Shown here: one piece after another, positions 9,437 through 12,184 of the stretch
Layout: each line of letters opens with the position of its first letter
Numbering within the stretch: position 1 is the stretch's first letter
Assembly (NCBI GenBank): GCA_038249665.1
Contig: JBBSDF010000006.1
Span: 17,685 to 81,684, forward strand
From: Chitinophagales bacterium
GTDB taxonomy: Bacteria; Bacteroidota; Bacteroidia; Chitinophagales; Chitinophagaceae
Length of the DNA stretch: 64,000 nt
Reading direction: 5' to 3'
The notes under the pieces: model-generated
Databases searched by the model: none
What the model was told of the DNA's origin: nothing
What the model saw: only the letters and a program-made list of their open reading frames with translations
Position numbers and translations under genes: made by a program

Positions 9437-10000
9437 AGAAGTTGATTGATAGAGATTAAATATCAATCATTGTCCAAAGATCCTAATTAACCCAAAAAGT
9501 GTTTTCCAATATCCAACTAAGAAAAGCTGTAAAATTCAATATCAGTCAACTTCTACTTTTAAAAAGATACATATCGATCATATTTTATCCCTTTGAAAAA
9601 CCAATAAATCAATATCCTGCTTATGCTCTAACAGGCGACGATAGCACCCGTTTTGAAATCCAGTATTTTGAAAAAATCCTTATCCGGTACACAACGAAAA
9701 CCAACCAAAACCAACATCCACATGCCTATGCTGCCAATACAGCGATGATGGCGAAACAAAGAACAACTCAAATCCTGTAAAAGACCAAAAAACCAAGCCA
9801 ATTATCCTACAGCCTATGCTGCCAACCACAGCGATGATGGCAAAGACCGTTTAAACTGAAACCAGGACACATTATTTGCGCCAGCCATAGCTGGTAAAGC
9901 GAAACCAAATCCTGAAAAGCCGATTGCTAACATCAACAATTGGTAAAATTGTAAACTTCCACAGCCTCTTTGCAACAGCAAATTCCTGTGGAAGTTTTTT
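9437..10000 (+). ncRNA. Paralogous structured ncRNA, unit A (about 564 nt)
   Basis: Starts AGAAGTTGATTGATA, complementary to TATCAGTCAACTTCT 9540-9554; three stem-loop modules; CTGAAACCAGGA 3' domain at 9856; ends in a terminator; no conserved ORF. Confidence 0.7.
9953..10000 (+). terminator. Terminator of unit A
   Basis: aaacttccacag/ctgtggaagttt stem plus T-run. Confidence 0.8.
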
Positions 10001-10152
10001 ATAAACGCATTTTTTAAATCAGTTGTTAGCTATTTAACGAATGTAGTCGCATTTCCTACTACAAAATCACGATTACATTCACGACAGATAAATAGCCAAA
10101 ATTCACTAAGAGATTTGCTGATTGTCCTATTTTTTAAGATAATTATACAACC

Positions 10153-10160
10153 CATCTTTG
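10153..10160 (+). promoter_or_regulatory. -7 box of ncRNA unit B
   Basis: CATCTTTG 3 bp before AGAAGTTG, as in the other units. Confidence 0.5.
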
Positions 10161-10163
10161 CAT

Positions 10164-10490
10164 AGAAGTTGAAGAGTATTAACCATCATTAAAATCTTGC
10201 CGGATTGTTATTAGATTCCCAAAAATGAATATTATTAAATGAAGCCCGTTTAAATTCAAATTCTATGAAAACCAAAGGTTTGTATCTCCTTCAACTTCTT
10301 TAATAGTAAAAATTTAAAAATAATATAGTCTTTCAAATTTTGGCGCTAACGCCGCTATCTATTTCATTGCAACGATTTAGATCTTAACCAAGTATTTCGT
10401 CTGAAACCGATAAAACACAAAACATCACCCTCCCTACAAACAATTGGCTTCCGCAGTTTCTGCCACAACAGAAATTGCGGATTTTTTTTT
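10164..10490 (+). ncRNA. Divergent paralogous ncRNA, unit B (about 327 nt)
   Basis: AGAAGTTGAAG 10164-10174 perfectly complementary to CTTCAACTTCT 10289-10299; CTGAAACC at 10401; terminator 10450-10490. Confidence 0.55.
10450..10490 (+). terminator. Terminator of unit B
   Basis: tccgcagtttctg/cagaaattgcgga 13-bp stem (one G-U) plus 9 T. Confidence 0.85.
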
Positions 10491-10813
10491 CGAATTTTAA
10501 CGTTTTACTCAGGATCAATTTCTTAATTGAATTTTTATACTCAATCTGTCCGTTTATTTCAATTAACGAATTGAATCGGATTCACATCAACCTTTCAAAC
10601 TCCATTTTATTTTTGGGATAAAGATTTAAAATATTTGTTGAATGGCAATGTGCGGCCCTTATAGTTGAAAAGAAAGGGTTAGAGAGTTTGCTGGCAAAAA
10701 CAGAGCTGAGTTAACAGTTATAAACCCTTTTGTAGTTATTAATGGAACCAACAATCGATAAAAAAAACTCAATTAATCACCATCCGACTATAAGCTGGGG
10801 ATACTGCGTGTTT

Positions 10814-10821
10814 TATCTTTG
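10814..10821 (+). promoter_or_regulatory. -7 box of ncRNA unit C
   Basis: Canonical TATCTTTG 4 bp before AGAAGTTGATTGATA; no TTG at the 20-bp spacing. Confidence 0.6.
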
Positions 10822-10825
10822 TGGT

Positions 10826-11208
10826 AGAAGTTGATTGATAGAGAAGATATCAATCATTGTCCAAAAATCCTGATAAAACCGGTCAAGTTTTTCCAATATC
10901 CAAACTAAGAAAAGCCGTAAAATTCAATATCAGTCAACTTCTACTTTTAAAATGTAAAAGAAATACAATGACGAAAACAACGCTAACCTATCAAAACGAT
11001 CTTATATAAATTTTTCTAGATCATTAAAACCATTTTAATCGGATGGTCTTGCAAACGAACCTTACATCCAATACCTTAAAACCAATCTTTTATCCATCAT
11101 CCTTTTAGTACGCCATCTACGATGTCGTATTGTTGAAAATCCATTTAAAACCAACCACGAGTTGGACAAAACTGAACAAAACCGTCCTCTTCTGAAGGGC
11201 GGTTTTTT
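10826..11208 (+). ncRNA. Paralogous structured ncRNA, unit C (about 383 nt)
   Basis: Same 5' domain (10826-10840 pairs with 10928-10942), several short hairpins in A/C-rich linkers, terminator 11178-11208. Confidence 0.65.
11178..11208 (+). terminator. Terminator of unit C
   Basis: aaaaccgtcct/agggcggtttt stem (one G-U) plus T-run. Confidence 0.8.
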
Positions 11209-11416
11209 ATACAGAATAGGTTTTATAAAATACCAGGTTGATGATTTGGGTAACATACAATACCCATCAAATCAAATATTATCAATAAGTATTCGTGGGT
11301 ATCATTAGTCCAACTTTACTGCAAGGTAATTTTACCTTTGGCGTGATAAGCAGTGTTTCAAAGCCTTTCAGTACTAATTTATTAAATTCAACCTTGTTAA
11401 ATTAAGCCTTCACCAT

Positions 11417-11551
11417 CGTATTTCTACGTAATAAATTTAAGGGGTTTTATCATTAAAACCATGCAGATAGTACGATGTCGGCAGTAATTACTTCATTACA
11501 ATAATTTAGCAATATTGCTCTTGTGCGGCATTTAAAAGCACCGCATCTTTG
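11417..11551 (+). promoter_or_regulatory. Promoter of ncRNA unit D with conserved upstream elements
   Basis: CGTA-N4-TACG 11417-11428; TACGA-N6-CAGTAATT 11471-11489; TTG 11521-11523; 20-bp spacer; CATCTTTG 11544-11551. Confidence 0.7.
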
Positions 11552-11728
11552 TATCAGAAGTTGATTGATAAAGACAATATCAATCATAGAATATCCAAAC
11601 ATCCAGAAAAAGCCAAACGTTTCTACAATATCCTAAATAACAGAAAGACCGTTTAAAATTCAATATCAGTCAACTTCTACTTTTTAAAAAAATAATAGAA
11701 TATCCAAATATCCAGGAGAAGAACTAAA

Positions 11729-11925
11729 ACCAATATCCGACCTATGCTGTAAGAAGCGATGATGGTCAAAAACCAACTGATCCAAATCCTACAAAAGACA
11801 AAAAACCAATATCCCGACTTATGCTATAAAAAGCGATGATGGTCAAAAACCAGGAAGGTCCAAATCCTACAGCGGACAAAAAACCAATATCCGACTTATG
11901 CTGTTAAAAGCGATGATAGTCAAAC
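11729..11925 (+). repeat. Three imperfect tandem repeats, period 76-78 bp, within unit D
   Basis: ACCAATATCC(C)GAC(C/T)TATGCT-N-AAGCGATGAT(G/A)GTCAAA starts at 11729, 11805 and 11883. Confidence 0.85.
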
Positions 11926-12184
11926 AAAAGCCAACGAATATCCAAACATCCAACACATCTGCGTTGTCCAATACAGCAAAGATGGAAAACCAAAACACGG
12001 TCTGCAGAAGGCCACCCGTAGATTTCCTTTATCCTAAAGCCTATGCTGCCTACCACCAGCGATGATGGCGAAAAACGAAACACTGAAACCAGGAACAACT
12101 CATTTACTGCAGAGTTTTACTCTGAATAGTAAAATCTGATCCTGAAAAACCGACAACTAGTGTTTAAGTTGGTTCAAAGCATTC

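Follow-up and report, generated by a model that had tools for sequence, protein, structure and literature searches.

Several gammaproteobacterial RNAs, among them CsrB, RsmY, RsmZ, CrcZ and CrcY, carry many copies of one short motif, some of them on small hairpins, along an otherwise variable RNA; they are non-coding, highly abundant and produced from several paralogous genes with their own promoters and terminators. In Bacteroidota, the RbpB-associated FopS/GibS RNAs of Bacteroides form a multicopy family of paralogous small RNAs (sRNAs) with sigma-ABfr-type promoters, and their conserved single-stranded 5′ element is bound by an RRM protein (PMC11697453), while Bacteroides are reported to lack CsrA and Hfq (PMC13370968). 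Here, we analysed a 64-kb stretch of DNA from a Chitinophagales bacterium of the family Chitinophagaceae (assembly GCA_038249665.1, contig JBBSDF010000006.1, positions 17,685 to 81,684; hereafter, the window), which holds seven copies of a hairpin module with a nearly invariant internal loop. To our knowledge, classical global RNA regulators are absent from the Bacteroidota, and we know of almost nothing on riboregulation in the Chitinophagaceae, a group abundant in lakes, soils and activated sludge.

The RNAs encoded at this locus share all the above features of the CsrB-type sponges. Their repeated motif, however, is AUCC beside an internal-loop hairpin, and not GGA in hairpin loops or an A-rich CA motif: GGA is depleted in the array (5.4 per kb; 11.2 per kb outside it in the window), the apical loops read UAAAA or CCAAYCA, and the two groups have no sequence or Rfam relation. 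With FopS/GibS, the array RNAs have in common a multicopy paralogous organization in a Bacteroidota host and the type of promoter, whereas the Bacteroides RNAs differ in sequence and architecture, measure ~100 nucleotides (nt), have no repeated hairpin module and come from another bacterial family; FopS is said to be in Rfam, where the array RNAs have no match. The mammalian long non-coding RNA NORAD, reportedly a Pumilio decoy whose repeat units contain binding sites for the sequestered protein and a small stem-loop each, is eukaryotic and of unrelated sequence, and serves as a functional analogy of design only.

The modules are better regarded as a new repeat module within a new RNA family of the Chitinophagaceae. 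They are real and conserved, and neither Rfam 15 nor the searchable literature contains a description of them. Rfam 15 gave no match at the gathering threshold in the window and 13 related loci, the best sub-threshold matches in the window (E about 0.5 to 10) being terminator look-alikes, and a literature search for a described Chitinophagaceae RNA motif or sRNA returned nothing relevant.

Seven modules in two of five tandem sRNA genes

All seven modules, structural elements at the level of RNA, belong to two members of a set of five tandem paralogous sRNA genes, each with its own promoter and terminator, which together make up a 3.8-kb stretch of the + strand free of open reading frames (ORFs); between 9200 and 12990 there is no ORF of more than 93 codons, only short unconserved ones. 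An earlier note on this DNA, made from its letters alone, had described the modules and proposed a repeated protein-binding unit. The structure it outlined is strongly supported, while the larger object, the set of five sRNA genes of which the modules are accessory parts, had escaped it.

A search of the window for TATGCT-N(4-14)-GCGAYGAT gave seven matches, all on the + strand, where 100 dinucleotide shuffles predict 0.00, and a covariance model of 130 homologous modules, run on both strands at E<=1, returned exactly these seven, which are the copies that the note had listed. Gene 1 contains module 1 (9618-9646; UGCU-UAU-GCUCUAACAGGC-GACGAU-AGCA; 34.3 bits), with AUCC immediately 5′ of its stem, module 2 (9723-9753; (U)GCC-UAU-GCUGCCAAUACAGC-GAUGAU-GGC(G); 43.8 bits), with an apical hairpin of the class termed B below, and module 3 (9812-9841; GCC-UAU-GCUGCCAACCACAGC-GAUGAU-GGC; 39.3 bits). 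Gene 4 contains module 4 (11739-11767; GACC-UAU-GCUGUAAGAAGC-GAUGAU-GGUC; 51.1 bits), module 5 (11816-11844; GACU-UAU-GCUAUAAAAAGC-GAUGAU-GGUC; 48.4 bits), which has a U.G pair within stem 1, module 6 (11893-11921; GACU-UAU-GCUGUUAAAAGC-GAUGAU-AGUC; 52.4 bits) and module 7 (12039-12069; GCC-UAU-GCUGCCUACCACCAGC-GAUGAU-GGC; 36.2 bits), whose class-B hairpin is the usual form before the 3′ domain. All seven lie on the + strand, and every one has AUCC 0-4 nt 5′ of its stem, as previously observed.

Within one RNA, adjacent modules have different stem-1 sequences, which would be expected if every hairpin has to fold independently. For six of the seven modules folded in isolation, the proposed hairpin is the minimum-free-energy structure, module 1 being the exception. 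With stems of 3-4 bp, the folding energies are not significantly below those of shuffled sequences (z from +0.4 to -2.1), so the structure is supported by covariation and not by thermodynamics. Between modules 6 and 7, at 11956-11984, there is a further hairpin (CAUCUGCGUUGUCCAAUACAGCAAAGAUG) with an apical part like that of a class-B module (CCAAUACAGC) and without the UAU/GAUGAU loop, which may be a decayed module.

The five genes share one architecture. Each begins with a -7 box, (C/T)ATCTTTG, that fits the Bacteroidetes consensus TAnnTTTG and is followed 4-6 bases on by AGAAGUUGA, a combination with five occurrences against none expected. The subsequent 5′ domain of ~120 nt is bounded by the helix P1, in which the arm AGAAGUUGAUUGAUA pairs with UAUCAGUCAACUUCU, then a U-run; single-stranded AUCC motifs lie between the arms. 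The body is A/C-rich and G-poor, contains further AUCC motifs and leads to the unit's own terminator, and modules are found in genes 1 (three) and 4 (four) only. In the long form, the 3′ domain consists of an invariant CAGGA/UCCUG stem with a variable hairpin inside it, then another hairpin, which shows compensatory changes, and lastly the terminator. Across the array, G makes up 14% of the bases and ATCC occurs at 11.9 per kb, compared with 3.9 per kb elsewhere in the window; altogether, 42 AUCC motifs and the seven modules are packed into 3.5 kb of the array.

Conservation of the module

From homologous loci, 130 distinct modules were picked with a pattern that fixes the loop, and the covariance model then built was used to search 784 kb, yielding 129 matches, some of which break the original pattern. 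Among the 130 distinct modules, the stem-1 pair next to the loop is paired in 100% (CG 91, UA 33, UG 6), the second in 92% (CG 89, UA 28, UG 2, AU 1) and the third in 100% (GC 110, AU 18, GU 2), and the fourth position uses six pair types. For stem 1, covariation scores 0.354, a value that none of 500 shuffles attains (0.171) and that sliding the partner lowers to 0.143 or less; the compensatory changes already recognized among the window's stems are as described there and hold in this larger set. Since stems 1 and 2 contain G.U pairs, which would be A.C mismatches on the other strand, only RNA of the + strand fits the structure.

The internal loop is nearly invariant, as the note had stated, with UAU in 127-128 of the 129 model-aligned copies (U 129, A 128, U 127) and, opposite it, G-A-N-R-A-U (G 127; A 127; N being U 112, C 13, A 2, G 1; R being G 120, A 7; A 128; U 128). 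In the 421 distinct modules available when metagenome loci are included, the 3′ strand reads GAUGAU in 361, GACGAU in 25, GAUAAU in 25 and otherwise in 10. Over these 129 to 421 copies, the third bulge nucleotide is the sole free position of the internal loop, and stem 2, the two G-C pairs (G-C, C-G) that close the apical hairpin, is unchanged. The apical loop, by contrast, had been taken to vary freely and instead falls into two conserved classes: one, the 12-nt GCYNUAAAARGC, accounts for 373 of the 421 modules, and class B, the 15-nt GCUGCYAAYCACRGC, is mostly found in the last module before the 3′ domain. A GNRA apical loop (GCCGAAAGGC) is present in two copies.

Of 153 modules, 143 have NUCC no more than 20 nt upstream and 68 have it directly against the stem; the modules are regularly spaced, at 51-58 nt or 77-88 nt. 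An alternative pairing of an upstream AUAUC with GAU(G)AU was rejected: where the loop has C at N3, the base before UCC is still A (22 cases) and never G.

Resemblance to kink-turns and box C/D

In several respects, the module is like a kink-turn (k-turn). It has a C-G pair at -1b.-1n, a G-A-N bulge (L1-L3) after the invariant stem-2 pairs in which only L3 varies, G at 1b and A at 2b (128 of 129), and U.U at 3b.3n as in box C/D RNAs, and its bulged strand, GC-GAU-GAU-GG, resembles GC-GAA-GAA-CC of Kt-7. At 1n, however, the module has U in 127 of 129 copies, whereas the standard k-turn has a sheared G1b.A1n pair, and at 2n it has A in 128 of 129, which gives A.A with 2b in place of A2b.G2n. Kt-23 of T. 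solenopsae does have A at 2n, and A.A occurs only in rare non-standard k-turns; essentially every k-turn has the hydrogen bond that A1n accepts from the L1 O2′, and function is lost on an A1nC change (PMC5061560). Having U at 1n, the module is therefore not a standard k-turn, in line with the caution voiced earlier on this very point. It might possibly be a complex or new kink, but only if A9 were to take the 1n role with U10 extruded.

The comparison with box C/D leads to a similar picture. AUGAUGR of the module agrees with box C (RUGAUGA) at six of seven positions, and at all seven where stem 1′ begins with GA, yet the seventh box position belongs to the covarying stem here. There is no guide region, and the host is a bacterium with no sign of C/D protein machinery. 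The partner strand is YUAU and not CUGA in all copies, and for this reason the module fails as box C/D.

Distribution of the family

We searched for relatives with an 18-mer from the P1 3′ arm (CAATATCAGTCAACTTCT), which matched at least 120 genome stretches. Among the matches listed, 118 of 120 are true family members from many Chitinophagaceae genera (Ferruginibacter, Puia, Flavisolibacter, Ginsengibacter, Terrimonas, Hanamia, Flavitalea, Pseudoflavitalea and others), four cultured strains included, and the carriers comprise Ferruginibacter sp. HRS2-29 (L071), with four modules, and Flavisolibacter ginsengisoli DSM 18119 (L061), with the short form; in L081 and L083, the 18-mer matches by chance inside coding sequence. 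A metagenome scan anchored on two adjacent modules added 102 further loci, and where these reach far enough upstream, 54 have the exact 18-mer and 8 have it with one or two changes. One genuine member with a long AUCC-rich interior lies on a contig labelled as a Citrobacter freundii metagenome-assembled genome (L037), which is probably a mis-binned Chitinophagaceae contig. A viral origin was considered and rejected: in 15 IMG/VR contigs (L226-L240), CAATATCAGTCAACTTCT lies in one unrelated conserved phage gene without the 5′ arm, AUCC or modules, and appears to be an unrelated coincidence spread by homology.

AUCC is present in 133 of 133 distinct 5′ domains, while the number of modules per RNA ranges from 0 to ~8, varying even among close relatives, and about half of the family loci are without any. 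The universal element of the family is the 5′ hairpin with its AUCC motifs, the modules being accessory parts, and where modules are lacking, the RNA apparently comprises no more than the 5′ domain up to its U-run. In a sub-group (L125, L136, L141, L224, L147 and L218), the 5′ domain has shrunk to a ~37-nt hairpin (AGAAAAUGA..GUCAAAUUCU) directly followed by up to ~8 modules per RNA, with 23 modules in the L218 locus.

Judged by the PALP-CBS protein encoded beside the array, the host belongs with Ferruginibacter-like Chitinophagaceae. In relatives with 90-95% protein identity, the array again lies between the PALP-CBS and Peripla_BP_2 genes and has 4 to 12 modules. At the syntenic site, close relatives have 2, at least 3 and 5 sRNA units (L001 11410-12931; L002 11356-16348; L003), and this difference in unit number implies that the array expands and contracts quickly. 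Among the matches listed, the PALP-CBS gene is the same-strand upstream neighbour in 53 loci, and a periplasmic-binding-protein gene lies downstream in 44.

Two partners are open to the 5′ arm GAUUGAUA in each of the 133 distinct 5′ domains: a UAUCAAUC copy close by, and UAUCAGUCAACUUCU further downstream, with its U-run. The local hairpin corresponds to 9437-9469, 10826-10856, 11556-11586 and 12520-12552 in the window, and L017 and L034 retain it with a different sequence. This choice may constitute a switch between a terminator-like P1 and read-through, which would set the ratio of short to long forms; the predicted species measure roughly 130 nt, with the end at the P1 U-run, and 500-700 nt, with the end at the distal terminator.

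Expression

Sequence words from the units turned up in 14 metatranscriptome runs, whose sources were lakes, fresh water and soil. Contigs that are 88% or more alike cover 11733-12146 in four independent freshwater metatranscriptomes, with mean depths of 34, 190, 6.7 and 21, while depth is zero in the inter-unit spacers and far lower in the flanking genes, and two other runs agree. Several modules at a time are spanned by contigs of 245-311 nt, and a contig covering 11654-11803 links the P1 3′ arm to the first module of gene 4, which indicates that the module body is made by read-through of P1. A second promoter ahead of the module body was rejected, as there is no TAnnTTTG-type box there and this contig spans the junction. 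A search for RNA-seq of a cultured carrier found none, the hits being metatranscriptome contigs only.

In runs X21, X22, X24 and X25, the module body (11733-12146) is covered far more deeply by contigs than the 5′ hairpin domain of that unit (11545-11690). This contrast could reflect processing or differential stability, or be an assembly artefact, a possible source of which is a stretch of 30 nt identical in four of the five paralogues.

Discussion

We tentatively favour the view that the repeated modules are multivalent docking sites for an RNA-binding protein on a sponge or scaffold RNA. The full-length RNA consists of the 5′ hairpin domain with single-stranded AUCC, 0 to ~8 repeats of the order A-rich spacer, CCAAUAUCC and hairpin, the 3′ domain and the terminator, and each repeat would offer a bipartite site made of single-stranded AUCC and an adjacent weak hairpin with a nearly invariant, kink-prone asymmetric loop. 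Many such sites per RNA, multiplied by several genes per array, would give a high-capacity decoy or scaffold that titrates the protein, working like CsrB/RsmZ or CrcZ through an unrelated motif. The conserved promoter-proximal box, together with the local or distal choice of partner for the 5′ arm, may decide how the output is divided between the short form and the long one with modules.

The pattern of conservation speaks for this view. Stems that vary while remaining paired beside a near-invariant loop, hairpins that are weak, and neighbouring stems that are unlike argue for recognition by a fold-stabilizing factor, and AUCC at the 5′ foot of the hairpin, the many repeats, the several genes and the high abundance argue for the design of a multivalent decoy or scaffold. 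As in known decoys, many copies of a conserved short motif are carried by an abundant non-coding transcript.

Several observations weigh against it. The array, whose neighbours encode an S41 peptidase, PALP-CBS, a periplasmic binding protein, FBA and AccD, has no linked gene for an RNA-binding protein; the ORF list of the window, read for RNA-binding proteins, contains only SmpB and an S4-domain protein (named by N-terminal sequence), neither of them linked to the array. The module-less half of the family implies that the module is not essential for the family's core function. The invariance of the loop fits an RNA–RNA tertiary contact or a nuclease site equally well. Moreover, expression is known from assembled contigs of related strains, which carry neither strand nor end information and might include DNA carry-over, and the switch between short and long isoforms is read from sequence.

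The family-wide repetition of single-stranded AUCC, with modules being optional, would also suit a multi-seed base-pairing sRNA, in which AUCC/CCAAUAUCC seeds pair with GGAU targets and the hairpins insulate and present the seeds and shield the RNA from nucleases; Bacteroides, after all, has the multicopy paralogous seed sRNAs FopS/GibS (PMC11697453). We consider this explanation plausible but unlikely, given that plain insulators need neither an invariant 9-nt internal loop nor conserved apical loops and that a seed of 4-9 nt in 10 to 40 copies per locus is unusual for antisense regulation; GGAU at the 46 translation start regions of the window is not enriched either (6 versus 11.6 +/- 3.4 from the coding background), although this test is weak. 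Conserved A-rich apical loops, the GNRA loop of two copies and defined 5′ and 3′ domains such as large structured non-coding RNAs possess would accord with an architecture of RNA alone, where A-rich apical loops (UAAAA, in one case GAAA) and internal loops make loop-receptor tertiary contacts within a compact fold or a multi-RNA assembly. The 5′ strand UAUGC is indeed like the UAUGG strand of the 11-nt tetraloop receptor, but the 3′ strand GC-GANRAU mismatches the receptor's CC-UAAG, the spacers are unstructured and G-poor, and 0 to 8 modules even among close relatives are hard to square with one tertiary fold, which leaves the idea quite improbable. To a related proposal, that the modules are not protein sites but self-recognizing RNA blocks whose UAU/GANRAU loop is a new receptor for A-rich apical loops, so that the tandem repeats would make the RNA fold or multimerize into a higher-order RNA-only assembly with AUCC exposed on its surface, we assign a distinctly low probability.

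The regular spacing and conserved hairpin, along with body contigs that are short and of uneven depth in metatranscriptomes, could mark each module as an endoribonuclease site at which a long transcript is cut into unit RNAs, in the manner of Cas6/CRISPR or ToxN/ToxI. Against such processing, none of the syntenic loci has a cas, toxN-like, TnpB or dCas12f gene beside the array, the repeats are non-identical, the 'spacers' are conserved AUCC/A-rich sequence rather than variable, and the 245-311 nt contigs cover several modules; we hold it to be improbable. Tandem aptamers for a small molecule or ion, forming a ligand-buffering or ligand-sensing RNA, would account for invariant loop nucleotides in a small weak hairpin and for metabolic genes as neighbours, but are very improbable for modules that vary in copy number, sit in a terminated sRNA instead of a leader, come with no expression platform and match no Rfam riboswitch. 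Finally, tandem repetition within an intergenic region might point to a DNA-level repeat without RNA function, be it MITE/REP-like or a protein operator array. That is hardly credible for an element uniformly oriented relative to promoters and terminators, syntenic across genera and not dispersed, with homologues in metatranscriptomes and with G.U pairs that would be A.C on the other strand.

Known kinds of repeat that are near-identical and placed beside a cas, toxN or rpoE-dcas12f gene were examined as candidates and dismissed. CRISPR arrays and type III antitoxin repeats do not fit stems that differ among repeats, and the flanking genes in the window and at syntenic loci encode the S41 peptidase, PALP-CBS, Peripla_BP_2, FBA and AccD. 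The guide RNAs of dCas12f-sigmaE systems (PMC13472631) were dismissed as well, as no such operon is nearby.

Whatever its partner, the array defines a widespread, highly expressed and tandemly amplified RNA family. Under the favoured reading of a multivalent docking RNA, its repeat logic, single-stranded AUCC plus a covarying hairpin with an asymmetric loop, is the design expected of a high-capacity decoy, and this decoy-like design makes the RNA a concrete bait for finding the group's missing RNA-binding regulator. For RNA structural biology, a loop with more than 400 natural variants that follows most k-turn rules and breaks the one held essential represents a test case.

Layout of the array and adjacent sequence

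All five genes are on the + strand. Gene 1 (9425-10000), a long form with three modules, has its -7 box (CATCTTTG) at 9425-9432, the P1 5′ arm at 9437-9451, the local partner UAUCAAUCA at 9461-9469, the P1 3′ arm and U-run at 9540-9560, the 3′ domain stem CAGGA 9863-9867 / UCCUG 9910-9914 and the terminator at 9956-10000. Gene 2 (10153-10490; -7 box 10153-10160, terminator 10451-10490) is a divergent paralogue without modules, in which P1 is retained via compensatory changes (AGAAGUUGAAGAG 10164-10176 / CUCCUUCAACUUCU 10286-10299): the -7 box and outer P1 are the same as in the other units, the inner P1 is substituted by compensating sequence, and AUCC motifs are few. Gene 3 (10814-11208) has no modules, with the -7 box (TATCTTTG) at 10814-10821, P1 at 10826-10840 / 10928-10948 and the terminator at 11179-11208. 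Gene 4 (11544-12230), the long form with four modules, has the -7 box at 11544-11551, P1 arms at 11556-11570 / 11664-11685, the 3′ domain stem CAGGA 12090-12094 / UCCUG 12140-12144 and the terminator at 12186-12230. Gene 5 (12508-12960) has no modules and only CCAAUAUCC motifs in its body, with the -7 box at 12508-12515, P1 arms at 12520-12534 / 12630-12651, the 3′ domain stem CAGGA 12835-12839 / UCCUG 12882-12886 and the terminator at 12917-12960.

Upstream of genes 1 and 5, at 9388-9405 and 12471-12488, a conserved box, GAGCAAnnnCGCTATTGT, ends at the presumed -33 TTG; it is also present in L001, L018, L071, L074 and L078, contains a GAGCA..TGCTC palindrome in several genera and may be an operator for a transcription factor. 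Downstream, a program-called ORF of 299 codons (12889-13788) begins within the terminator region of unit 5. Its Pfam match sets in at residue 16 of the shorter form that starts with the ATG at 12991, so this ATG is probably the true start of the Peripla_BP_2 gene.

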